From Pseudogymnoascus verrucosus (Eukaryota), in assembly GCA_001662655.1 (NCBI GenBank), contig KV460248.1: DNA of 64,000 nucleotides; one strand, given 5' to 3'. The position numbers and the translations under genes are program-made. Under the pieces are notes generated by a model. The model saw nothing but the letters and a program-made list of their open reading frames with translations. It was not told where the DNA came from and made no database searches. Position 1 is the stretch's first letter. Each line of letters starts with the position of its first letter. Below are positions 1 to 35,949 of the stretch, one piece after another.

Positions 1-3000
1 TGGGCACCCTTCGGGGGTTATGCCTCGTTTTTGGGCAGAAGGGGAGGGGGAGGGAGGGGGAGGTATCTTTGTGATGGGTAGTGTGTACTTTAACTCTTTG
101 GGCTGTGGTTTGGAGGGAGGGGAGGGATTTGGGGTATTTGGGCATGGATGGATGGCCTGGGGATGGATGGGATGGGGGATAAATGGAGACCACAGTGCTG
201 GACGGACGGGGATGGAGGAATTGGAGAAATGGAGAAAAAACATGGGAGAGATTGGTAAACTGTAACAGTACCACGGCAAGCCCACTGCCACTTAAATCTG
301 GCACTGTCCTCGATCCGGCGCACTCTCTGCGGAGCCCAGATTACAGTACCATCCATCCGTCGTCGCGACGGTTTGTGTTTGTGTGGTTGTGTGGTATTGG
401 CACTGCGTCAGAGGGGGAGTCCAGACTTTCGGCGACGGGCTGGCATCGGGAGTTTCCTTTCCACAACCCAAGGGCAAGTCGCAACGACATCAAGATACAC
501 CGCACTCACCCTCTCTACAGTGAAGTGCAGTACGCCCGCCCTATCCCTTCCGTCAGCATCCCGTCACTCACAAACCCCTCACCATCACCAAGAACTCCTA
601 CATACATACTATTGCATCATCCCCCTATATAACCGCCTTGCCCTGTGTGTCAAGTGACGTTGGACCAAAAAACCCTCCCTCGCGCCCGACCAAACCTGAA
701 CTGAACTGCCTTGGGCCGCTCCGCTCGGGGCACTGCAAACACCAGCACCACGGGTACTGGGATGCGCTGCTGCACCTCGCCCGAAACCGTCGGCTGCGAC
801 ACGACACGACACATCGATATGATGGACTGCTGTTGCGGACGCAGGCAGGGTCCTTGACGCAGGCGGGCTGCGAGGCATGGCATGCAAGCAAGCACGGCGG
901 TACGGTGGGCGCGTCGTCGCCGTTTTGTTGAAAGGGGGGGAAGGGGGGGGGGGGTTGTTGGGTTTGCGGTTGCGTTGACTTGACTTGATGTTCAGCTTGC
1001 TGCAGGATGCTTATCATATATCTCATTGAGATCATCAGGCCGCGATGAGACGGCCTGCCTCGTTGGTGCTTGTGTTGGATTGTTGGCTGTCCATCCCCCT
1101 TCCTCCCTCCCTTTCCCCTTTCCCTCCCTCTCCCTCCCTCCCGTACATCCTCACCTCCCTCCAACTACCAACGTCGCACACCCGCACGCCCACCCAACCC
1201 CAATCGACAGACAAACACACCGTCCTGTCTCCGCCCTACCCTGCGTCCGACGCAACGGCGGTGCACAGGCGCAACGCGCGGGTACTCCCTCCCTCCCTCC
1301 CTCCCTTCGCCGCCTGAAACCCCCATCCATCCCGCGCGCTGCGCTCAGGCATCGCGCCCCCGTCCGTCCGTCTCCTTTGCCGATTTTCTGCATCGCGGGA
1401 GGGAGGGACGGGGCATCGGCGGTGCGTGCGGTGGGGGGAAAAGGGGGGAGCCCGGGGGGGGAGGGGGAGGTGAGGTGTCGTAGATCAAACAGGTCTGTTC
1501 TCTGTTCCTCCTTGCTGTGCGTTGGCGGGCTGCTGGGGGCGGGGGGGGGGGTGGAGAGGCGGATTGGGGGCGCTCCGAGACATTTGCAAGTCTCGGTGAA
1601 GGACCGAGGCGAGGGTGAAGGGGGGAGGTGAGGATTGATAATTCCTCCTCCGTGTTTGTGCTTATCACCTGCCCTCCACCCCCCGGCGACCGTTCGCCCC
1701 TTTATTTTGCTTTTGTTTAGGTGGTTAGGTGGTGCCCGAGACACGGCCTGGGGAGCTGCTGGGGGAGGGAATTGGGATTGGGGGTGGGACTCATTTCGTA
1801 TTTTCCTTTCCCGTCTCGAAGCACGGCGAGAGAGAGATTGTTAATTTGGCGATGATGGCGCGTGGTGCTGCACAAACTGGATACAAACTGCACACAGACA
1901 GGCGTTGGGTGTTTGGGGGCAGTGCGTGTGTGTGTGTACTTTACGGTACTGTTACTGTAAGATACATTCCTCTATCTAACCTAACCGCTGCCCGAAATAA
2001 TAATAATAATTCTGCAAAATGCGTGAAAGACCACAATTCATCACAATCATAATCACCAACACACGCCAATTTACCTAGGCCCCGTTGACAGCGACCGTGG
2101 TATCGACCGACCGACCAACCGCCCCACGATGAAGGCCGCATACATGGCCGCCCGCCACACCACACACCACGCACACCGCGCGCGCGCGCGCGTCCGCCCC
2201 CGCATCGAATTCTCGTCAGGGGACCAGAGATGTATGTAGGTCTTGCAGCCATCACACCCTCACCTCGTCCCACCCCCTGGATGCCCAAAAAATGTCGTTT
2301 ACAGTCAGTACCCATCCATCCATCAACCCTGTTGTCGTAGGGCGAGGCGAGATATGCTTCTCGCTCGTTGCGGTAGTGGTGAGCCGGGGGAGGGTATGGA
2401 ATCAAGAAAGCAGATGGGCGCGTAGGTGGTGTTGGATGGATGGAAGGGGGGGATAGATTAAATCATCGCCACTTCCAACAACAGCACATGGGGAATGAGT
2501 GGTGATGATGTGACCAACACGTAGCGGAAATCGAACGAACACTACGATTCCCGTTCCCGTCCGTCCCTCATGATCGCGGAATGAAAATCTCGAATCGCCA
2601 CCACCACACATCGAAGGATAGCCAGGGGGGGGTTGGTTGTAGTGTCGATATTTCGTCTATCCCCCTCACCCGCCAAGAACCTGCGCTGCGGCATTCCCGC
2701 CCTCCCGCTGTTGGTGATCCCGACCCCCCTTCCCGAACCCTACGATGCGCGGGCTGGAGCGGGCAAGATTTCTCGTTTCTCGCTAGGGGGCTAATGTAGT
2801 GCTTACACTCTACTGTACGTATGTATGTACACCGGACAGGTTGAGTAGTGACGCACGATACTGCGCGCTGTTTACTACTTGGCGGTAGGTATATGCAGTG
2901 CTGACCACATCTCCGCGGAAGTGCAGCGGACTGTTATGGATGATGATGGAGACGAGACGAGACAAGACGGTGTACTACTACTGCACTGCGCTGTTGTGAA

Positions 3001-6000
3001 CACACACCGGTGGGGCAACCGAGCGAGCGAGCGAGGGATGCGATCCCTACGGGAGGACTGCGGCTACGGCGGTGAATTTCCCTATGCGCGCCGCCGCCGC
3101 CGCTGTTAGCGACGATGACCACCTTTCCATCCCAGCTGGGCTGGGTAATAAGATCATTTCCTGATGGTCGTGTGTGCATGCATGTGCTGGTTGCTGGCTA
3201 GTTTATGTCGGAAGGGGAAGGGAGGGGGAGAAGCAGGGGGTAGCCACTGATGCCGCGTTGAGCGCGTGGTGAGAACTAAGGCTATTTTGTTGTTGTATGA
3301 CACGGCTGCGTTCCTTGCTGCCGTAATAAAACGCCGAGGGGGATGAAATGAAATGAAATGAGAGGAGATACGAGGATCTCTCTACTACGGAGGAGGCAGG
3401 TGAGGTGAGACAACAGCCTGTCATATTAAAATTGAATTCCAATATGTGCCATCCCATCCCATAGTAGCAGCCACGGCCCGCGCTGGGCTCGGGAGTTGTA
3501 CGACCTCGGTGAGCGGGTAGACGAGGGAAGGGGAAGGAGGGCGTAAGGGAGGATCCAAGACCGCATGCGACCCTTTCTGCAGATATTGATAGATTGCTTC
3601 ATTAAACCGGGCAAACGCGGTGCACTGAGATGTTTGCGAATATCTCACCTCGCCTTGCCGCCTATGCAGGTAGATGCACTGATGCGGCCGGGTGGTCGCA
3701 GGTGGTGGGTATCCAACGGAGAGGCAAACAAACTGACAGATGGAGTGACAGATGCAGGTGGACGGGACGGAAGCAGGGAGGAAGGTCGGGAGGGAGGGAA
3801 GGGGGGGGGAGTGACACGACGCAGACGGAGGTCTGACGTCTCTTTGGGTTGTCTGTGTTGTATGTATGTGGAGAGCGCAAATGGGGATACGGGCATAGCC
3901 GCCGTAATCGCGTGTTCCAACGAGGAAGCAGGGTAGAAGTCCAAGTCCAACAGACATGTTAATTTTACGGGAAGCTGCAAGCCTGCCCTGCCCTGCCTTG
4001 TGCCTCGTGGCCTCTGACCGAGCGCGTACAGTTACCAGAATAGGCTCGTTGGGTTGCGGGTTGGGGGCTGGGTTCGGGGGTCCCTTGCCGCCGCCGTTAT
4101 ACCATGAGGTAGGTGACCAAAAATGCGCCGCCGCCTCCGTCGAAAATTCTCAGCTTGGGGCGGAGAAAGTGGGAAAGTAGTGCCCAGTGAGTGAGTGAGT
4201 GGAGGAAGGGACTGGATGGACGGACGGACGGGGTTGCATTACATAGCCGTCGCTAGCTAGCCAGTGTGTCTCTGTCTGTCTGTACTGTCACCTCTCACAC
4301 CGAATGCATGGGACGGGTGGTGGCGACGGGTAAATTGTAAACTTGGGTTTTTTTTCCCCCTTCGGTGGTGGGTGAGTCTCTTGGTATCATGTCGTATGGT
4401 TGAGGATGCTTGCGTATTGCGTGGTGGATGTGGTAAGGCGTTAGTAGTGTTAAGTCGTGTTTAGTCGTGTTTAGTCGTATTAGTCGTATTATCAGCGTTA
4501 GTACTCCTTAAGTGTCCTCCCCTCGTCTCGGCACCCACGCAAACCCCATACATCGTCGTCATCCCTCTCCAAAACTACTCCCAGCAAGCCTGCACGCGGA
4601 CATCGCCAAGCATTCGAAGGGAAAGGGACGAGACGAGACCGAGGGGAAGGAAGGGAAGGGAAGGGAGCGGAGCGGTAGAGTAGTAGGTTTGGTTTGGTTT
4701 GTGGTAGGGTACGGGTACGGCGGTACGGTGCATGCGGTAGAGGATACTTGTCTCTCTCTAGCAGATGCTACTTACTGTACTGTACCCATAGATCTGCCGG
4801 GAAGGGGAGGAAGTTGGTGGCGGATAGACCGACGGCGTGGCAGTGGGTGGGATGGGGATGGGGAGGGCCAGTGTGGGATGGGCTGGGCTGGGTTACAGGT
4901 ACCGCATGTTCTCTGTGTGTGTATGTAATGTACGAGAAGGTGCAGGTGCAGGAGAGCAGGAAGGGAAGGGTATGTGATGTAGAGTACGGTACTGCTTCGT
5001 CCTGCATCTTTGTGGCCCTGTGTCCTGCGTCGTTCTTTCTCTCCACGATCCCGTCCCATCAAAATCCCCATCGGCATCATCGACGCAGCACAGCCACCAC
5101 TTTCACTCCCTTCCAAGACATCTTGTCCATTGCCCATCTGTGCCATCTTCCCACCACACCCATCGTCTTCCCCGATTGTGGCACCAAACACACGACACAC
5201 ACACACAGACTCCCTTACCAAGTTCCCTCTCAACTGAATCGGTATTAGTAGTCTCGTATGTACACTCCAGTACCACTCCTAACCCATCGCCTCTTCCTCC
5301 TCCATCTCCCCATCCGGAGAGTCCATCCTCACCATCATACCATACACCATACACCAAACACGCCTCCACTCCCATCCCATCCCATCCGTCTGACCGCATC
5401 CATCCAGCATCGCCCCGCCCCTTCCCTCCCTTCCCATTCCCACCCCTCCCCCCTCGCCCCCATCCCTGCACACCCGAACCCCCATCTCCCCCCCCCTGCG
5501 CGCGGCCATTGGCTGCACCCGCTCCCCAACCCACGCGCCAGGAATTCCAGGCTGTCGCCAGCCAGACCCAAGTCAGCCGAGCTGGGTCGCGCTTGTGCAC
5601 GGCGGACCGGGGTAGGGGGGTGGGTGGGAAGTGGGTGTGTGGGTTTGGGTGTACTTTGTAGGTGGGTGGTACCCTGGTGTACTTGACTTGTAGTTTGTGT
5701 GTGTGTGTGTGTGTGTTTTTTCACTCACTAGCTGGTACCAGAGACGGTACGGTGGTACGCTGGAGGCGGTGGGTTTGGTGGGTTTGGTGGGTGCTGGGGC
5801 GGGTTGTTCCAGTGAGTGGATAACCCCTGTTGGCTGTTAGCTGTTAGCTGTTGGGAAGATGGAGATGTGGACATGGGAGTTGGATGAGACATGGTGAGGA
5901 GGAGGCCGATGAGGAGTTCTACTGGCTACCAAAGTATTGTACGGAGTTACAGTAGTAAGGCGGGGCGGAGGGGGGAGAAGGAGAGATGTATGTATGTGGA

Positions 6001-8779
6001 GAGTAGGAAGAGATTCATGGGAGGGAAGAAGGGAAGGAAGGAAGGGAGGGGAGGGGCGAAATGGGAGGGGGGGAGGGGTGATGGTGATGGTAGGTGAGGT
6101 AAGTACTCTACTGTATACTGCACTATACTACACTATACTGCAACCTGCACACATACTACACTACTTTCAACGCTGGACAGGCAAAGAGAAAAAAACGATG
6201 TGTGTATCCATACGTGATGTTGTTTTATGTCTACTACATACTATACTATCCCTAATATGCCTGTCTGCGTTTGTGCGTGGATACTGGGTGTACGAGGTGA
6301 GACTGGCTGACTTTACCAGAAACTATCTATTTTGCTCCATCCCTCCCCATACACTATCTACTGTATCTACTCTAGATGACTGTGTAGTTATATGTACTCT
6401 ACTGTTAATTGACCGACTGATCGTGCACATACACACAGGCATACATACACACGATAGTCGACGGGGATCATGGCGGATGCTACTGCAAACTACCAGTTAT
6501 ACCTTACACCTTACACCTTACACCCATAATCCATAATACTACACCATACTACTCACGGACTGAATGACTTGCATCTGAACTTGTACTGGCCTGACCTGAC
6601 CAACTCCGTCACCGTTCTTGTTCTATTCTAATCCTCGTCTTCTTCATCCTATCTACTTTCTCTCTTTTCTATCTTTCTATCCTCCGTAAACTCTCTCTCT
6701 CTCACCCACTCACTCACCTCCTCCTCGACTCACTCCCCTCCCTTGCGCCCCTCTATACACAACCTTCAACCCACACGTAGGCCCCGCAAAGGAAAAAAAG
6801 AAAAGAAACGAAACGAAATTCCTCCTTCTCTTTATTACTTCGATTTTGCCCTCGCCGGACCGCACAAAATTCCCCGCAGAGAAATCTTGCCCTGAGAGCT
6901 GAGCTGAGCTGAGCCGTGCCGCACCGCACTCCACGTCAGCAACAAACCACACACTTCACTTCACATCACACAACCCACCAACAGACAAACAAAAAAATAT
7001 CCTACCCACGAAAGGAATCCGCGCCCACTCTCACTCACTCAAATTCACCCCCACCAACCCACCACGAGGAAATCTGAATCTCAGCTTCCCAAGTGTCTCG
7101 CGACCCCTCATATTACAGTCGCACACACAGCAAGCAAACCAAGCACCTCCCCGCGACTACTACTACCCCCCCCAGCGCAACCGCAGCGCTCCGGCTCGCA
7201 GCATCCATTCCCCATCGCCGGCAGATCAGGGTAGCTAGTCTTCCCTTCGGTCCGGTTCGCGGTCCTTCCTTAGAGGTCGACACCCGTCAGGATCAACAGC
7301 GCGGGCGATAGTCGCAAACAAAGGCTGGTAACGAGTCCTTGGGCGCACCACAAAAATCTCGGAGACCCGAATAAGTTACCATTTCCCAGATCTGGGCAGA
7401 CGGGGACTAAAGACGGACGACGGACTTGAATTGAAGAGGGTATTGCCACTTGGTTGTACGGCTCAGGTTAGTATTTTCTACAGTTTGTACTGTACGAACT
7501 GAGAGAAAGAAGGAAAGACAGAAAGTTGAATTGGCGCGAAACAGACGCCAGAATACTCTCACAATAAACCTCACACCTCATACCCACGGGAAGCGCGAAT
7601 CTTGCTACCTGGTTGAGCCCATTACAACCCCCATTCCAAGGAATTTCTCAAGAACCAAAGGAACATCAGAAAAACATCCTGAATCGCAGAAATACCTCTC
7701 CCCCCAAATCCTGCAATCTCGCGGCCCCAGAATTCCGATTTCCTGGTTGAGAGGGCACCGAAGGTCCACTTGGGGCGATCTACTGTTCCGCAAAGTTTGG
7801 TACACTTGTCACCGCCGGAGGCAGACGAAATTGGCGCTTGGAAAATTTTAGAAGAGTTACTTACGGGAGGGAAGGCGCGAAACGCAGTGGGACGGTGAAA
7901 AAAACCCACAGCCACACACAAAACACGCACAAGCACCAAGGAGCACAAAGCAGAAACGCGCGCGCACACACACACACTTAAACTATCTACGGCAGTACGG
8001 TAAAGAAAGTAAAGTCGTGCAGCAGTTGCCGGGTTTTGTGGACTCGTCCAACTTCAAACATCACACCACTGGGAATACAAGGGAAATACAAAGAGAGAAA
8101 GGAAATATACAGTTGAGCCGGATCAGCTGAATCGCGGACCTGAATCATCGATCTTTGGTCGTTCTGGGTCGACCTCGCTCGCTATCCGCAGGGCCCGTCC
8201 GCTATCACATACACTAAAAGGCCCCCCCCGAGCCTTTGCAACCCCGCTGAAGGACAGCCCGGTCTGAGAGCTGAACAGCCCAATCCGCGGGTACATTTGG
8301 AACCCCTCTCCCCCCCTAAACCTCCCCCACCTCATCTCTCCATTATCACATAATCCATCTTCTGCCCTCTGCCACCTCCTCTTCCTCTCCATCCGACTTC
8401 AACTTATCGGGTACAACGATCACATCGCAAGCAGTTTGTGCATATCGCCACTGTCTTGCTTCTGTATCGGACTCTCTCACAGTCCTTGCCGCCAGACCAA
8501 TTCTTGACGTTTTTCCAAGAATAATCAACCGGCTAGAACTGCGACTTATCGCCTTCTCACCTTCCACACCGACATACGACCACCAACTTCGAATTTCGCC
8601 TCCATAAACACACCTAGCGATACGAAATAAACCACAATAAACCGCAAACGACCATCTCTCACTTCTCCCTACACGACCAATCTCCCGGACGTGTAAACAC
8701 CATCCAGCGACTTCATCTCGCGGACTTTTGAAGCCAAAACCTCCCCAATCAATCCGTCACCGTGGCGATCTATCACAAT

Positions 8780-9956
8780 ATGTCGTATTCGGAACAGCAA
8801 GGAGGTCCCTATCCTCCCCCTAGAGACCCGCGCGATCTTGGAGAATCGCAGTACCCTCCACCTCCAGGAGAGTACCCCCCGCCACCCGGGGAAGAAGACG
8901 ACCGCGCGAGGGCGTACCACCAGCGCGCGCCAATGCCGACCAACGTCACGCTGCCCTCAATATCTCCGTACGATCCACAGTATGCTGCGACAAACGGCTA
9001 CCCGCAGGATCCGAGGTACAGACAGGATCCGTATCATCAGGGGCCGCCACAGGGCGCCTACGACCAGCGTGCTTATCAGGGAGAGTACAATAGGGGCGGA
9101 CCTCCACATATGGCATTCAGCCAGACCGCGCCGAGGCAACGGACCGCAATCGCATGCAGGTATTGCAGAAGACGCAAGGTAAGCCTTATTCCCCATGCCG
9201 ACTTGCGAATCGCAAGTTTTGGCGAAAGTCTTGTATGTTTCGAGTATTAGAGGCTGACATCACCTTCAGATTCGCTGCTCAGGTTTCGAGGATAACCCGA
9301 CGGGCAAGTGCCAGAACTGCCAGAGATTCCAGCAGGAGTGCATCTTCACCCCCGTCTCGTCGCAGGCTCAGGCTTTCGTCCCAGCGCACGCCGCGTACCC
9401 ACACATGCGCAACGTCATGGGCCCCGACGGGCGCCCGCGACACATGTACCAGAACCAGCAGCTCTACGGCGCGCATGGACAACCCCTAGGCCCTATTCCG
9501 CAGCAGGGAGCCCAGGGGTCGCAGTATGGCGAATACGCCGTTCCGTCGCCGACGGGGTCGTATAACAGCTTCACAGAAGACCGAGGAGGGGATACTGGTA
9601 GGAAACGACCGCACGGCGAGCCGCAGGCGTCTATCCTACCGCCACCTAATCCGGGACAACCTCCTTATCCGCGCCAAGAGCCGGGAAGGCGGCCTCCTGT
9701 CGATGACGATTTGCGCCTCGCGCCAGTGACACCGGTGGTTGGACAGGCGAACTCGAATTACTCCCCTGGCTCCTCTACTTCCTCCACCTCAGGCAAGCGT
9801 CCAGGAAATGAAGGACTGCCGTCTATGTCCCGCACACCGCCTCTGCGTTCGTCTCCTGGCGATCGCAGTGATCCTATGGCTCTGGGGAATATCATGGAGC
9901 GGCGTCCTGAAACGGAGATCGATAGGAATATGCTCGGTCGTCTTGGTCGGAAGTAA
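8780..9956 (+). CDS. Zn(II)2Cys6 transcription factor, small Pro/Gln/Tyr-rich type (tentatively McrA-like); exons 8780-9178, 9270-9956
   Basis: Splicing GTAAGC..GCTGAC..CAG (9179-9269) rebuilds ACRYCRRRK|IRCSGFEDNPTGKCQNCQRFQQEC, a complete six-Cys binuclear cluster. The frame continues to TAA at 9956. The McrA assignment is from memory and uncertain. Confidence 0.9.
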
Positions 9957-11317: not shown

Positions 11318-13104
11318 CTACGCATCAACCCCCTCCACCGACGGCAGCGGAATCGATCGATACAGCAGAATCAGCGCCGAGTGCGACTCTCCGCCACCAC
11401 ATAGGGTGTCAATCTTCTCCGCCTCCACCTCGGTAACCTTGTCATCATTAAACCACCACCACTTCCCATCCTCCTCCTCCCTCTTCCCCGTCTTCTCATT
11501 CATCCGCCCCTCCTTCTTGACATACGACGTGTAATGCCCACTATCCGCACTAGCGCCCTGATGTGTGACCACACCCCGGAGCTCGTAGAGGCCTGACTTA
11601 TTCGCGCCTTCGTCCTTGGCGAGCTCGGGGTTGATCAGAGCGTGAAGCTCCTTCTTGGCGTTAAGAATGGAGGCTGCGCGCTCGGCTTCGATCTCGGCAT
11701 CGGTTCTGTAGGTCTCATCAGTCATCTCGGTGTCCCCCCCCGCAGCCGCAGCACTGCCCTCTGCGGCCTTCGCGGGGGCGGGGTCGGATTTCTTAGACTC
11801 AGTAACGGAATCCACAATCCCCGCCGCCTTATCCGCCTCCTCCTTATCATGCTGGCGCTTCTGGCGCTTACGCGCGCGCTCGACATCCTCGACCTCCTTC
11901 CGGACATCGCGGACCTTGTCGCGCACAGGGATGAGCATGGACTTCAAATGATCGGTGCAGAACTCCACGACATCGAGCTCGTGCGGGAACGTGACCTTGC
12001 GCATGATCTTCGCCTTCTTCTGGGCCTCGCGCTTCCAGTAGAAGCGGACGAAGTGGACGGTGAGGTAGGTGGGGAGGCGGGCGAGCTTGGATTTCTTGGT
12101 GTACATTGTGTCGCGATCTAGGAGGGCGGATTTCTTCTCAATCTGCTCGTCGAGGCCGGCGGCGAGGCCGTCGCGGAGGTGGTTGGTCGTGGCGCTGATG
12201 TGGCAGTCGAGTTTGAGGAAGGGTTCGGATGTTACTATGGGTTCCTCGCCGAGTTCCTTGGCGGCGGGGTCGTCGCACTCGAGGGAGGAGGAGAAGCGGC
12301 CGGCCATGTATTTGTCGATGAAGGAGGTTTCGGAGTCGTCTGTGTCCTTCATCTTGAGTTTTTGGCGGAGTTGGGAGACGATTTGGGACCAGGCTTCTTC
12401 GGCGTCTTGTTGGGCGTAGCCGTTTCCGGACTTGGCTTTTTGGGCGAATTGGGGATAGAGGTTCCGTAAGGCGCTGAGGAAGACTAGTGGTGGGAAGCCC
12501 TCCTGGGTATCGGCCATCTGGGAGTAGAGGTCGCGTAAGGATGCGGTCAGGTCCAATCCAGCAGAAGGTCCCCCGAGTCCAAACTGGCTCAGACCACCAA
12601 GTGCGCTGTTGGAATCCGTTGTGCCCTTGTATTTTGCGAGTTCCTTTTGTAGCTCGGGAACGGCGCGCAGTGTCTGGAGGGTGGAGTTGAGATAACATGT
12701 GTTGCCCAGGTTCTGCAATCCAGCTGGTGTGGCGCCATCCTGTCTTGCCTGCTCGGCTTCCGTCATATCCTCAACGAACTTTGTTTTCTCCTTCGGCCGC
12801 GAGATGGCGTTTCCATCCGTAGCTGGTGTGCCCATCATCATGAATGTCTGCCCCGGCTTTGCGCCGAGCTTCGATAGGTCGGTATCATCCTTGAGCTGGC
12901 CGCCCTTGACGAGGATCTTCTGTCGCTCTGGTTCGACGCCGGTAAGGGAATATAATTGGAATTTGAAGACCTCTCCCAGTGATGTCGGGTCGAGTTCTAC
13001 CTCGTATTTCTTCCCCTGGTGCTTCACGATGACTGACTGAAGGTTAGCATGTATTTATAATACGGCTGTTTGGGGCGCCGTGACTTGCCTGGTATGGTCG
13101 CCAT
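11318..13104 (-). CDS. UBP6: Proteasome-associated ubiquitin C-terminal hydrolase Ubp6/USP14; exons 13104-13089, 13032-11318
   Basis: N-terminal UBL (VIVKHQGKKYEVELD..QKILVKGG), Cys box GLQNLGNTCYLNS, His box HQGASADSGHY and WWWFNDDKV. The first exon MATIP joins through a GC-AG intron. Confidence 0.95.
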
Positions 13105-31041: not shown

Positions 31042-34000
31042 ATGGATCCGGCCATTACCGATGAGCTCAGCAAGCTCGACGATGGCGTCGCCTTTCGAGC
31101 TTCTCCCGACCATTTCCACCATACTTGGGCCCGCACATTTTACTCTGCGCCCGAATTGTATATCCAGCCTGAATCAATCGAAGAAGTCGAGAAATTGACT
31201 ACGCTGGCACGACGATGCCGACGACGCATTACAACGGTTGGCTCCGGCCACTCGCCGTCCGACTTGACCTGCACCTCAAGCTGGATGGTGAACCTGGACA
31301 AGTTCAACAAGATCCTCTCTGTCGATAGAGAGACCGGGCTCGTGACTATGCAAGCTGGGATACGCCTCTTCCAGCTTTCAGAGGAATTGGACAAGCTTGG
31401 TCTCGCGATGCCTAACCTCGGCAGTATCAACGAGCAGTCAATTGCTGGCGCCATTTCTACTGGAACCCACGGCTCGACTCTGCTTCACAGCATTCTCTCT
31501 TCTTCGGTTACCCGGCTGAAGATCACTCTCTCGAATTCGCAAACAGTCACTTGCTCGCCAGACGAGAATGAAGACCTTTTCCGTGCCGCGCTCTGTTCTC
31601 TTGGCGCCCTCGGCGTCATCACCGAAATCACTTTCCTGGCCGTTCCAGCATTCTCACTCCATTGGAAGCAAACTCTGTACCCCCACAAGCATGTTTATGA
31701 CAAATGGAACGCCAACCTCTGGACACAAGGCGAGTTCGTGAGGGTATGGTGGTACCCATATACTCGCCGCGCAACTGTCTGGCATGCCTCGAAAACTACA
31801 CAACCTGCTTTGGACATCGTACATAAAGCTGCTTCCTTCGATTCCGCGTTTGGTTACCACGTCTACCACAACCTACTCTACATTGCACAATGGGTTCCCA
31901 GGATTATGCCGTGGGTGGAATGGTTCATTAATGGAATGCAATTTGGATTTTCAGCAGGAGAGCAGACTACTATCGAGGCAATTCAGCCATCGCGACAGGC
32001 TCTCCTCATGGACTGTCTATACAGCCAAACCGTGAACGAATGGGCTATCCCACTTCGCAATGGACCAGCTGCCCTTCGCCGCTTGACCTCTTGGCTTAAC
32101 CGACTCCCGCCTACCGATCCCGAATACGTCGAACATGGTATCCCATACAGCGCAGAGGGACTCTGGGTTCACGCACCGATCGAGGTCCGCGTCAGTGATA
32201 CAACTCTCCAGTTGAAGAACACTGACGGCTCTCCACGGAAATCTGTTCGCCCACACCTCGACACATCTGCCAAAGACGGGCCAACTCTCTATCTCAATGC
32301 GACTCTCTACCGGCCTTACAACATGGATCCTCCCTGTCTCGCTCGATACTATCAAGCTTTCGAATATTTAATGAGAGATCTTGACGGCAAACCTCACTGG
32401 GCAAAGAACTTCGAGACCACGAACGAACAACTAAAGGAAATGTACGGCGACGACCTAAAGTCGTGGCTCAATGTCAGAAACGAGGCAGACCCCGAAGGGA
32501 TGTTTGTTGGCGCGTGGCACAGAGAGTATATCCTGGGCGACGAACAACCAAGATTTGCGCTCGAAGAAGCTGAAGTCGACAGAAAGCCCATGCGAAAAGG
32601 TGGCGTTCAGATCTTCGGAGAGCTCACGTCTAAAACGGCACAAAAGGAGCGCGACGACGTAGAAGAGACGCCTATCGCCGTATCTGAAAATGTCTCTAGC
32701 TACTCAAGCCAATCGAGCTTCGACTTCCTCAACAGCAGCGAGGCTACAGAGAGCCAGCACCTGCCGACTTCCAGCACAACCGGGACAAAGGGAAAGGGAC
32801 TTGCAGAGGCAATGGAAGAAGTTTCCGGGAACAGTGAACTAACTGAGGCTGTGACCCCGGCGGCTACAATTGCCACATTGAACAGCAGCATTTCCAGCAT
32901 TGAAGCTGTTCTTCGCGACCTTGCTGATAGCCAGACTGCTACGTCTGAGAATACCGCTTCATCGACCCCAGACGGTTCTTTCCTGGAGAAGTCCGAGGAA
33001 ATTACTTCTACGTCCGAAGAAGCTGCTGCTGCCGAAGAAGCTGCACTCGTGGCCGAATTCTGGGCTGGTGCAGCTGCCGCGAAAGCAGAGGCTGCCGCAA
33101 GGGAAGAAGCCGCCGCCAAGGAAGCCGCCGCTCAGCAAGAAGCTGCCGCGAAAGAGCAAGCCGCCAAGGAGCAAGCTGCAAAGGAAGAAGCTGCCCAAAA
33201 GGAACAAGCTGCTAAGGAGCAAGCCGCAAGGGAACAAGTTGCTAAGGACCTAGCTGCCAAGGAAGAAGCTACCCGGAAGGAGCAAGCTGCTAAGGAAGAA
33301 GCTGCCCGGAAGGAACAGGCTGCCAAGGAGCAAGCTGCGAAGGAAGAAGCTGCCCGAAAGGAACAAGCAGCAAAGGAACAAGCAGCTAAGGAACAGGCTG
33401 CTAAGGAGGAAGCTACCCGGAAAGCAGAAGCTGCTGCGAAGGAACAGGCCGCTAAGGAGCAAGCTGCAAAGGAGCAGGCAGCTATGGAGCAGGCTGCCGA
33501 GGAGAAGAAAGCTGCCGAGAAGAAGGCCGCCGAGGAGAAGAAGGCTGCCGAGGAGAAGAAGGCGGCCGAGGAAAAGAAGGCTGCCGAGGAGAAGAAGGCG
33601 GCCGAGGAAAAGAAGGCTGCCGAGGAGAAGAAGGCGGCCGAGGAAAAGAAGGCGGCCGAGGAGAAGAAGGCGGCCGAGGAGAAGAAGGCGGCCGAGGAAA
33701 AAAAGGCCGCTGAGGAGAAGAAGGCCGCTGAGGAGAAGAAGGCCGCTGATGAGAAGAAGGCTGCTGAAGAGAAGGAGGCCGCCGAGGAGAAGAAGGCTGC
33801 TGAAGAGAAGGCTGCAAAGGAGAAAAAGGCCGCCGAGGAGAAGAAGGCTGCTGAAGAGAAGGCTGCCGAGGAGAAGGCTGCAAAGGAGAAGGCCGCTAAG
33901 GAGAAGGCCGCTAAGGAGCAAGCAGAGAAGGAGAAGAAGGCCGCCGAGGAGAAGAAGGCTGCTGAAGAGAAGGCCGCCGAGGAGAAGGCTGCAAAGGAGA

Positions 34001-35337
34001 AGGCCGCTAAGGAGCAAGCAGAGAAGGAGGAAGCTGCCCGGAAGGAGCAGGTTGCCAAGGAGCAAGCCGCAAAGGAGCAAGCTGCTAAGGAGAAGGCTGC
34101 TCAGGAAAAGGCTGCAAAGGAGCAAGCTGCCAAGAAGGCTGCTGAGGAGAAGGCTGCTAAGGAAGAAGCCGACCGGAAGGCAAAGGAGCAAGCCGCAAAG
34201 GAGCAAGCTGCCAAGGAAGAAGCTACCCGGAAGGCAGAAGCTGCCAAGAAGGCTGCAGAGGAGCAGGCTGCTAAAGAGCAGGCCGTAAAGGAGCAAGCAG
34301 CGAAGGAGGAAGCTACCCGAAAGGCTGAAGCTGCAGCGAAGGAGCAAGCCGCAAAGGAGCAGGCAGAAAAGGAAGAAGCTACCCGGAAAGCAGAAGCTGC
34401 TGCCAAGGAGGAAGCTGCTAAGAAGGCTGCACAGGAGCAGGCTGCTAAGGAAAAGGCCGCGAAGGAGCAGGCTGCCAAGCAAGTTGCGGAGGAAAAGGCT
34501 GCGAAGGAACAGGCGGTTGCTAAGGAGAAGGTTGCCAAGGATCAAGCTGCGAAGGAGCAAGCTGCCGCTAAGAAAGAAGCTGCTGCGAAAGAATCAGCTG
34601 CCGCAAAGAAGCCAGCTAACCCAAAGAAGTCAGCCAAGGATGCTGAGGAAAAGACAACGACCACGAAAGCGAGGCGTCTGTCGTTCGCCAAAGCAGCTGC
34701 CCTCACCCCCGAGGAAGCACCGAAATCCACCGAGCCCGCTGCGCCAGTCCTAGACCTGCACCACCTGCCACCATCACCATCGGCACCTAAAGCCAATGGC
34801 AATGGCCGCCACGTCCTCCCTCTCCAACCACGCCCCAACGGCGCGCATGCCAAGTCCAAGGCATCCACCACCAAGGAGGGAGAATCCCCGAAGGCAGCAG
34901 TAAAGAAGGAGCAGCAGCAAAGCACTACCACTGATGCCGCCGCAGCATCCCCGAAGCAGGCAAAGAAGGAGCAGCAGCAAAGCGCCACCATCACTGACGC
35001 AGCTCCCTCCAAACGCGAAGCCTTCGACGGCAGCGCCTCCACGCGCGCCGCCAAACGCGCCAAGCTCGCTGAGCTGACCGAGCAATTCGTGCAAGTCGAG
35101 ACGGTAGAGGTGACGCAGCAGAAGGAGAATGTAGCCCCGGTTGTGGCGAGACCGAACTCGCTGGATGATATGCTAGAGGAGCAGGCGAGGGCGAGGGGGG
35201 AGAGGAAGGTGGAGGGGGGGTGGAGACCGCAGGCGAGGCCGAATTCCTTGGATGAGTTGATTGAGGAGCAGAAGAGGGGAGGGGAGGGGAAGACTGCGGA
35301 GGGGGGGTGGAGACCACAGCTTAGGGCTAATTCGTAG
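31042..35337 (+). CDS. ALO1: D-arabinono-1,4-lactone oxidase with a ~900-aa C-terminal extension containing A/E/K/Q repeats
   Basis: TWARTF, covalent-[44 protein letters not shown] and PHWAK in the first ~530 aa; the ORF stays open for 1431 aa. Confidence 0.9.
33070..34611 (+). repeat. Coding repeat array: [10 protein letters not shown] 15-bp units flanking a central AAEEKK 18-bp array (~33493-33810)
   Basis: Visible in both DNA and translation, with variable third codon positions. Confidence 0.95.
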
Positions 35338-35949
35338 AGGAAGATGAGGGGAGGGAAGGGTGGTAGGGGGGGCGGGGGGTGTTTTGATATTTGATTGATT
35401 TGCTTTGGTGTGTATTATACAGCTGACTGCTATGTCTGGCGTCATAGAGGGAGATTAGATATGTTGCGATAGAATCTCCATACAATAAACCTCTACTTAA
35501 AATACTTGACTTCTAAAGATGAATTGAAGGGTTCTCGAAGGGTCCTTCGAGGACTCTTCGATGTCTTATGTGTATCACAAGATGTCACTATCCCCAGATG
35601 TGCAAAATATGTACTTGACTGTGAATCTCTTTCGTCTTCATAGATCCGAGTAATTAGTTTCGTGACCATCTACTCTAGTCCGTCTCTCTGTCCATCCATC
35701 CGTGTATATCTTCCAGAAAACGCCAAACGCCATCCCAAAATGCAAAACCCGGCTAGTATGTAGGTAGCCACCACCTATGCCAGTTGGTATACCAAACGCC
35801 CCCCTTCCCAGATCCGATTCCCATATCTTCCCCTCCCAAATGCAGCCTTTATACAAAATCCTACTCCAGAATCTCCGTAAATATATACTTCCTCTCCCAC
35901 CGCAGCGCGGTCGAGTGGTCCTCCTTCCCACCTCCTTCCTGGTAGACGC

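Follow-up and report, generated by a model that had tools for sequence, protein, structure and literature searches.

The 64,000-nucleotide (nt) stretch of Pseudogymnoascus verrucosus DNA analysed here (contig KV460248.1, referred to below as the window) contains on its + strand a two-exon gene, the product of which is a 361-amino-acid (aa) Zn2Cys6 transcription factor of a Pseudogymnoascus-like Leotiomycete. Directly upstream of this gene's annotated start codon lies a stretch of 2213 nt without a single ATG on the sense strand. This AUG desert, the probable 5' leader within it and the start site at which it ends are the subject of this report. The features are listed below, where TSS stands for transcription start site, P0001 is a hypothetical protein of Pseudogymnoascus sp. 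WSF 3629, and X1 and X3 are two runs with contigs that match the locus.

6567..8779, + strand: AUG desert, 2213 nt; 0 ATG against 16.1 expected, shuffle minimum 7, CAT 29
6600..6760, + strand: pyrimidine (CT)-rich tract at the desert's upstream edge, a possible context for a core promoter or TSS, read from the sequence
6770..8761, + strand: probable 5' leader of the factor's mRNA, about 2.0 kb, C/A-rich, G-poor and weakly structured (X1 and X3 contigs, fold energies)
8729..8731, + strand: in-frame TGA that bounds any N-terminal extension; the open frame is 8732..9250
8750..8779, + strand: start-site motif caatccgtCACC-GTG-GCG-ATC-TAT-CAC-AAT, with GTG at 8762-8764; motif in 33/34 starts
8762..8779, + strand: putative six-codon extension (M)AIYHN ahead of MSYSEQ, in the open frame that begins after the TGA at 8729
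8780..9178, + strand: exon 1, 133 codons from the annotated ATG, ending inside the Zn2Cys6 motif (..CRYCRRRK); matches P0001
8801..8817, + strand: candidate hairpin GGAGG(7 nt)CCTCC, 18 nt after the ATG, with compensatory changes
9179..9269, + strand: intron, 91 nt, GT..AG; a spliced X1 contig joins 9176 to 9268
9270..9956, + strand: exon 2, 228 codons plus TAA at 9954-9956; 98% identity to P0001 at 100% coverage

The factor gene and its ATG-free upstream stretch

The zinc-cluster pattern CX2CX6CX5-12CX2CX6-8C is present across the exon junction, in the form C-RY-C-RRRKIR-C-SGFEDNPTGK-C-QN-C-QRFQQE-C (CX2CX6CX10CX2CX6C). The cluster is divided by the intron, and for this reason neither exon reaches PF00172 when the two are searched separately against Pfam; P0001, the closest protein to exon 2 (98% identity), carries a precomputed PF00172 assignment. 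Among 622 candidate relatives of the protein, 317 have E<=1e-3, and those of full length with 60-70% identity come from many named Leotiomycetes, among them Leptodontidium, Clarireedia, Mollisiaceae, Lachnellula, Rhynchosporium, Blumeria and Erysiphe. No function is attached to the protein family among these relatives, and the ESM Atlas offers generic Zn2Cys6 clusters only. We also weighed a link to SclB, a regulator of Aspergillus, and dropped it, as SclB has 556 aa and nothing in the literature consulted ties it to the present family.

Between the + strand ATG at 6564 and its successor at 8780 lies a gap of 2216 nt, the longest ATG gap of the window when both strands are compared; outside a coding repeat, the remaining gaps do not exceed 807 nt. 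An earlier note on this DNA had claimed that the interval contains no ATG, that the depletion is strand-specific with frequent CAT, and that the gap begins at a CT-rich tract. The computer recount agrees on each count, with 0 ATG and 29 CAT in 6567-8779 and the tract present at about 6600-6760. The comparison with a Markov background, which the same note had named as a check, is equally clear. The stretch (A 614, C 728, G 408, T 463; AT 102, TG 73) would be expected to contain 23.7 ATG from its base composition and 16.1 under a first-order Markov model, and 2000 dinucleotide-preserving shuffles yielded a mean of 16.1 (standard deviation 3.2) and a minimum of 7. ATG is also the most strongly depleted of the 64 trinucleotides (z = -4.0, with -2.3 for the runner-up). 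The depletion is confined to the sense strand and is well past chance.

The composition itself could be blamed for this result, as the stretch is skewed (C 728 vs G 408; CAC 82 vs GTG 9) and contains CA and CT runs, so that ATG might be missing from a C/A-rich, G/T-poor low-complexity sequence with no translational selection involved. However, models that keep the dinucleotides still expect 16 ATG and never give fewer than 7 in 2000 shuffles, and sub-stretches of 7280-8279 with balanced GC skew (-0.05 and -0.03) likewise contain no ATG. The comparisons with orthologues described below bear on the same point.

A second ATG-free stretch of 601 nt lies farther upstream on the + strand (5258-5859; 0 ATG and 18 CAT in 5280-5779). 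It consists of a C-rich tract (ccatcc-type) and then a G-rich tract (gggtgg-type), and is followed at 5859-6564 by an ATG-rich, G-rich block. As a possible distal exon it was set aside, since it looks like C-rich then G-rich low complexity without usable splice signals. The other multi-kilobase trinucleotide gaps of the window, including a CAT gap of 1812 nt, are due to the Ala/Glu/Lys coding repeat at 32950-35400 (+), where about 2 kb of imperfect 15/18-nt tandem repeats encode a low-complexity segment (AAKEE/EEKKAA); an open reading frame (ORF) of 617 aa starts at 33484 within this region.

Orthologous leaders and their introns

An alignment of 12 homologues was used to scan metagenome contigs, and the best 80 of 192 confirmed relatives were kept. 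At 33 of these 80 loci the match starts at residue 1 with an ATG, and the nearest named proteins of these orthologous loci are Leotiomycete (57-96% identity by blastx). The distance from the start codon to the nearest upstream ATG is large at many of them: -2285 in L020 and L060, -1818 in L014, -1700 in L024 and L029, -1210 in L007, -1010 in L055, -1006 in L011, -977 in L013, -950 in L012, and -881 in L052, L056 and L058, while in L019 (1717 nt) and L015 (1380 nt) it lies beyond the contig end. L020 has one ATG in 4234 nt vs 87 CAT in the last 4 kb.

The earlier note had named the same depletion upstream of orthologues as a further check. We counted 16 distinct loci, each with at least 868 nt upstream, after removal of duplicates (L008, L015, L019, L060, L029, L056, L058, L006); loci with at most 613 nt upstream were left out (L002, L003, L004, L005, L017, L021, L022, L023/25, L043), and all of these except L021 and L043 have no upstream ATG to the contig end. 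With predicted leader introns removed, the last 1 kb contains 13 ATG vs 151.6 expected, with 270 CAT, and the last 2 kb contains 37 ATG vs 294.6 expected, with 550 CAT. In 14 leaders taken from -1500 to -30 (20,580 nt) there are 24 ATG vs 208.9 in shuffles (z = -15.9). At 6 of the 10 long loci, the largest gap of both strands is the one that ends at the factor's start; at the remaining 4 the larger gaps sit in the same upstream region. As a control, the paralogues at 11 distinct loci have 215 ATG in 2 kb vs about 249 expected (sums by hand), counted from provisional starts defined as the first in-frame ATG, which were obtained for 13 of 14 paralogous loci. We conclude that the AUG desert is both conserved and gene-specific.

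Near-cognate codons behave differently. CTG, GTG, TTG, ATC and ATT are enriched in the 14 leaders, and those in strong context number 20 vs 20.0 expected. With near-cognates not depleted and the strong-context ones at expectation, a purge of non-AUG upstream ORFs (uORFs) is unsupported.

The leaders of distant orthologues are mostly unalignable, the window's leader sharing with 19 orthologous leaders only two short blastn blocks of 33 nt (L012) and 29 nt (L002), and the purge of AUG has therefore been kept up independently of primary sequence. This argues against the compositional explanation: orthologues with different sequences show the depletion again, it stops precisely at the start codon, and the ATGs that remain sit in introns. 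Together with the shuffles, the counts at the 16 loci and in the 14 leaders refute the compositional artefact, to which we assign a negligible probability.

In five distinct lineages (seven loci: L008/9, L010, L014/15, L018, L021) a predicted intron lies exactly before the GTG of the start-site motif. These introns are canonical and 68-227 nt long; their donors read GTAAG, their branch sites tactaat or tactgac, and their acceptors cag. All ATGs within about 100 nt of the start, including those of L008/9, L010, L018 and L021, are inside them. L011 and L034 share an 89-nt intron (GTATGT..CTAAC/CTGAC..CAG) at about -1 kb that holds three and two ATGs, respectively. Since the close ATGs sit in introns, leader ATGs are tolerated where splicing removes them, and this indicates as well that the upstream regions in question are processed as pre-mRNA. 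The intron right before GTG is present in L014 and L018 and absent from L017 and L023, all four of which are 80-85% identical to one Mollisiaceae protein; its presence and absence among such close relatives indicates a recent gain or loss of the intron at the start site.

Two further observations concern the orthologous leaders. A block of about 100 nt (..AAGCGCC.CGCATCGCATCGTACCGCATCGC..CCCGCAGCTCGCCTC..GGCCGCAGAAAAGCGACCGTC..) is conserved in the ATG-free leaders of 8 orthologues (L007:1562-1702, L009:440-580, L010:406-566, L014:1171-1311, L016:120-255, L020:8421-8556, L030:8091-8226 and L052:1052-1172), about 1.4-1.6 kb upstream of the start and 2.8 kb upstream in L007. An nhmmer search of the window gave no match to this block, and no convincing covarying stem was seen in it when judged by eye. 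About 2.1 kb upstream of the start, L011 (at -2094) and L034 (at -2107) carry a tiny uORF, M-S-Y-stop, with residues identical to the first three of the main ORF.

RNA-derived contigs and the GTG at the start site

Among the runs listed, none is recorded as RNA. A contig of run X1 joins 9176 to 9268 and thus skips the 91-nt GT..AG intron, so that this run contains sequence derived from the RNA of a close relative (about 97-99% identity). Contigs of this run lie over 6770-7153, 7216-7432 and 7533-7850, and onward to about 8110, and another one (8593-9048) bridges the leader and the coding sequence (CDS). In run X3, the library of which is labelled metatranscriptomic, one contig covers 8480-8856 and another ends exactly at the exon end, 9178. 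X1 is uncovered over 5800-6723 and 8110-8571, and X3 upstream of 8420; these parts carry no weight in regard to a TSS or an intron. Among the sequence differences listed (40 of 280), 14 fall in the leader and none of them creates an ATG, a sample too partial to count. The earlier note had proposed a long, probably unspliced leader purged of upstream AUGs (uAUGs). The purged long leader is supported by the statistics, by the conservation among orthologues and by the RNA-derived contigs. As to the word unspliced, several orthologues have leader introns, and in the window X1 leaves 8110-8571 uncovered.

The contig of locus L007 is complete at 6351 nt and contains an uninterrupted ORF of 375 aa for the factor, without the CDS intron; its only other ORFs of at least 90 aa are two overlapping or trailing frames. 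The 4391 nt upstream of the factor contain 4 ATG vs 89 CAT, and no GT[AG][AT]GT donor. The CDS intron is kept at 29 of the 33 loci (28 without the duplicate L060). The intron-less loci are L007 and L003, L005 and L006, the last three likewise spliced, with ATG-free leaders of 358, 91 and 122 nt, respectively. Two readings of L007 are possible: the contig derives from mRNA and carries a leader of at least 4.4 kb, or it represents a lineage that lost the intron.

These contigs bear on two other accounts of the upstream RNA. The first holds that it is a separate non-coding or antisense transcript and that the factor's mRNA starts near 8780, possibly with internal ribosome entry. The contigs carry no strand, and X1 has none over 8110-8571, as this account would allow. 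However, X1 8593-9048 and X3 8480-8856 bridge the leader and the CDS, L007 joins a 4.4 kb leader to a spliced CDS, an untranslated or antisense RNA gives no reason for a purge of sense AUG that ends at the start codon, and with internal entry the upstream AUGs would be harmless and their purge needless. We consider this account very improbable.

The second account is possible, although we hold it to be clearly short of probable. Several TSSs could be spread over the 2.2 kb and used in a condition-dependent manner to give nested, mostly shorter leaders, with the purge reflecting the union of these isoforms. Contigs cannot show transcript starts, and in L020 the desert extends over 4.2 kb with one ATG, with CT-rich runs at about -2.3 and -4.5 kb that fit two start regions. 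Against it, X1 contigs have a depth of 2.8-7.0 over 6770-8110 and a comparable one of 2.8-5.4 over the CDS, contig depth being a poor measure, and L007 has its 4.4 kb leader on one contig with the spliced CDS. Moreover, the longest isoform would still have to be translated for selection to purge AUG from it.

The sense strand of the leader is C/A-rich and G-poor, and the C>G skew recurs in orthologues. The mean minimum free energy per 120-nt window is -20.7 kcal/mol in the leader, compared to -29.6 in its antisense, -34.9 in the CDS and -30.5 in the neighbouring ubiquitin carboxyl-terminal hydrolase gene. Relative to shuffles, the leader has no excess of folding (mean z = -0.2). Rfam covariance models gave 0 matches at E<=1 over 6300-9000, that is, no known structured element or internal ribosome entry site family, and Pfam gave 0 matches in the leader's four longest stop-to-stop frames (two per strand).

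The leader ends in a conserved motif. The sequence tCACC-GTG-GCG-ATC-TAT precedes the ATG in 33 of 34 starts (the window and the 33 loci), which present 24 distinct versions of it. All 24 versions share GTG itself together with A at -3, C at -4, G at +4 and C at +5, and 23 have C at -1. GTG precedes ATG by 18 nt in 7 versions and by 21 nt in the other 17, always in frame 0 and never with a stop. Codons 2-4 vary as GCG/GCT/GCC, ATC/ATT/GTT and TAT/TAC/CAT, with 10 differences in third positions, 3 in first and 0 in second among related sequences, without a formal test; the conservation of this extension of 6-7 codons is of the coding type. The last codon of the extension begins with a purine in all versions, and the -3 purine of the ATG is thereby preserved. 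Where the intron is present (five lineages), it interrupts the genomic copy of the motif precisely at the boundary of cacc and GTG, and in those lineages the motif therefore exists solely in spliced RNA, where the junction restores the 12-nt context of intron-less relatives (aaagtcgtcacc|GTGGCG in L010/L014 vs L017).

The earlier note had argued that the in-frame TGA at 8729 rules out a long N-terminal extension. A long extension is indeed excluded, with the amendment that the GTG at 8762 points to a putative non-AUG extension of six codons. Its context agrees with the start context of Neurospora crassa, described in the consulted portion of Wallace et al. (PMC7049704) as A at -3 with C enrichment at -1, -2, -5 and -8. 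Judged by this conserved context and frame, the GUG at 8762 is probably a near-cognate start used beside the AUG through leaky scanning. The gene model needs correction because the protein probably has this GUG-initiated form, six residues longer than annotated.

Alternatively, the tCACCGTGGCGATCTAT motif might be the site of an RNA-binding protein, or an enhancer of initiation at the AUG at 8780, with that AUG alone in use. Its nucleotides are conserved beyond what the residues AIY need (ATC in 21/24 versions, TAT in 20/24, A at -10 in 24/24), and the extension is very short, with no evident function for 6-7 added residues. Yet the motif keeps a spacing of just 18 or 21 nt to ATG, an in-frame stop never occurs, the changes are mostly in third positions (10, with 3 in first and 0 in second), and the flanks form an optimal start context, which is not required of a generic binding site. 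We see this alternative as having about one chance in four.

Downstream of the AUG, a hairpin of 5-6 bp (GGNGG/CCNCC) at 8801-8817 lies over Gly-Gly..Pro-Pro codons and has compensatory synonymous changes in 17 orthologues, the middle pair being UA in 9, AU in 2 and CG in 2. Its cells are paired in 93.8% of cases vs 84.7% in shuffles, and 0 of 500 shuffles reach 93.8%. A register shifted by +3 pairs nearly as well (92.8%) because of the Pro repeats, and the evidence for a conserved hairpin is therefore moderate. A downstream hairpin can reportedly favour start recognition, a proposal attributed to Kozak in 1990.

As for the surroundings of the gene, positions 1-6500 of the window contain no convincing ORF on either strand, with low-complexity frames only, and form an unusually large gene-poor region beside the regulator. 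The convergent downstream neighbour (11318-12841, - strand) encodes the 507-aa ubiquitin carboxyl-terminal hydrolase (PF00443, E = 1.3e-55).

A proposed scanned leader and its precedents

The explanation that we favour, with a probability of roughly 0.8, is that positions from about 6770 to 8779 form a transcribed leader of about 2 kb on a conserved Leotiomycete Zn2Cys6 mRNA, which selection keeps free of AUG and which ends at a GUG/AUG tandem start. Transcription would start near 6770, and one transcript would extend across the whole leader in this species. Purifying selection would remove every AUG from the leader, so that 43S complexes loaded at the cap could scan its full length without capture, the C/A-rich, G-poor and weakly structured sequence acting as a scanning-permissive runway. 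The first start signal met by the scanning ribosomes would be the GUG at 8762, in the optimal context of filamentous fungi (A at -3; C at -1, -2 and -4; GC at +4 and +5). Some ribosomes would start there and yield (M)AIYHN-MSYSEQ..., with the predicted N-terminal peptide (Ac-)AIYHNMSYSEQQGGPYPPPR, and the remaining ones would leak to the AUG at 8780, the -3 purine of which is likewise conserved.

Several points weigh against this explanation. Some presumed mature leaders retain uAUGs in the last 1 kb (4 in L052, 3 in L034, 2 in L030, and 1 each in L009, L012, L013 and L016), and the purge is therefore strong and not absolute. The orthologous sequences are phylogenetically related, so that the locus counts are counts of non-independent events. 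The contigs give no strand, start or continuity, the type of X1 is given as 'RNA? (a guess)', and no single contig spans the whole leader of the window. L007 could come from an intron-losing lineage and not from cDNA. At the start site, L043 is an exception: in place of the GTG motif there is an in-frame ATG at -21, and the peptide differs. The 24 conserved nt of the motif could instead be an RNA site to which a protein binds.

A more far-reaching version of the proposed scanned leader would make the runway of 2-4 kb and its GUG/AUG tandem start a dedicated translational sensor throughout the family. The output and the ratio of the two N-terminal isoforms would then report the scanning capacity provided by helicases of the Ded1/eIF4A type and the stringency of start-codon selection set by the eIF1/eIF5 balance, and would link the overall state of initiation in the cell to a Leotiomycete regulator. 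In some lineages, the intron placed directly ahead of GUG might supplement this with a mark of the exon junction at the start site. We regard this version as speculative and unlikely.

The nearest precedent is the leader of Candida albicans WOR1. As reported in the consulted part of Guan and Liu (2015, PMC4552353), this leader of about 2 kb has no AUG-initiated uORFs and lowers translational efficiency and polysome association, and EFG1, CZF1, RFG1, FLO8 and UME6 of the same species have similar leaders of 0.8-2 kb. The likeness to the account in PMC4552353 consists in a leader of about 2 kb, here a probable one, that has no AUG uORF and belongs to a fungal transcription-factor mRNA. The differences are that the present gene belongs to another fungal class and encodes an unrelated protein (Zn2Cys6 here vs WOPR in WOR1), and that its AUG-free state is conserved over many species, extends up to about 4 kb and ends in a conserved, putative GUG/AUG tandem start. 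The length of the leader may lower or regulate translation as it does in WOR1.

Conserved non-AUG N-terminal extensions have been described for N. crassa cpc-1 (Ivanov et al. 2017, PMC5487733), and near-cognate starts in strong context for Cryptococcus ArgRS and LeuRS (PMC7049704). As far as the portions of these articles at hand go, those cases have long extensions or organelle signals, whereas the extension here has 6-7 residues and no recognisable targeting signal; cpc-1 also carries AUG uORFs. The GUG here follows a multi-kilobase AUG-free leader. The uORF type of control exemplified by GCN4 and cpc-1 resembles the present case in the long leader on a transcription-factor mRNA and in the presumed translational control, but that type needs AUG uORFs and the leader in the window has none, which places it outside the type. 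Purifying selection against uAUGs is general in eukaryotic 5' UTRs according to the section consulted of PMC7889888; the selective logic is the same here, and the scale is 0 ATG in 2.2 kb, or 1 in 4.2 kb in L020. The consulted text of Wallace et al. (PMC7049704) describes Neurospora leaders as long and AUG-rich, with AUG-poor leaders as the exception in fungi. A word search of the open-access literature, excluding supplements, turned up neither a paper about this gene family nor one about a multi-kilobase AUG-free leader conserved in filamentous fungi. We regard the locus as a new case, unusually clean and deeply conserved, of a fungal regulator mRNA with a long AUG-free leader, joined to a probable GUG-initiated N-terminal extension.

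An AUG-free leader of 2 kb, and of up to 4 kb in relatives, maintained across a fungal class is among the cleanest natural signatures of linear scanning over kilobases from the cap. The tolerance of ATG only in leader introns belongs to this signature, though some mature leaders keep uAUGs. The locus offers a natural model for long-range scanning, for translational control of regulators dependent on leader length in filamentous fungi, and for non-AUG initiation. It also suggests that the factor may be subject to translational control, and tight post-transcriptional control of this Zn2Cys6 protein is likely.

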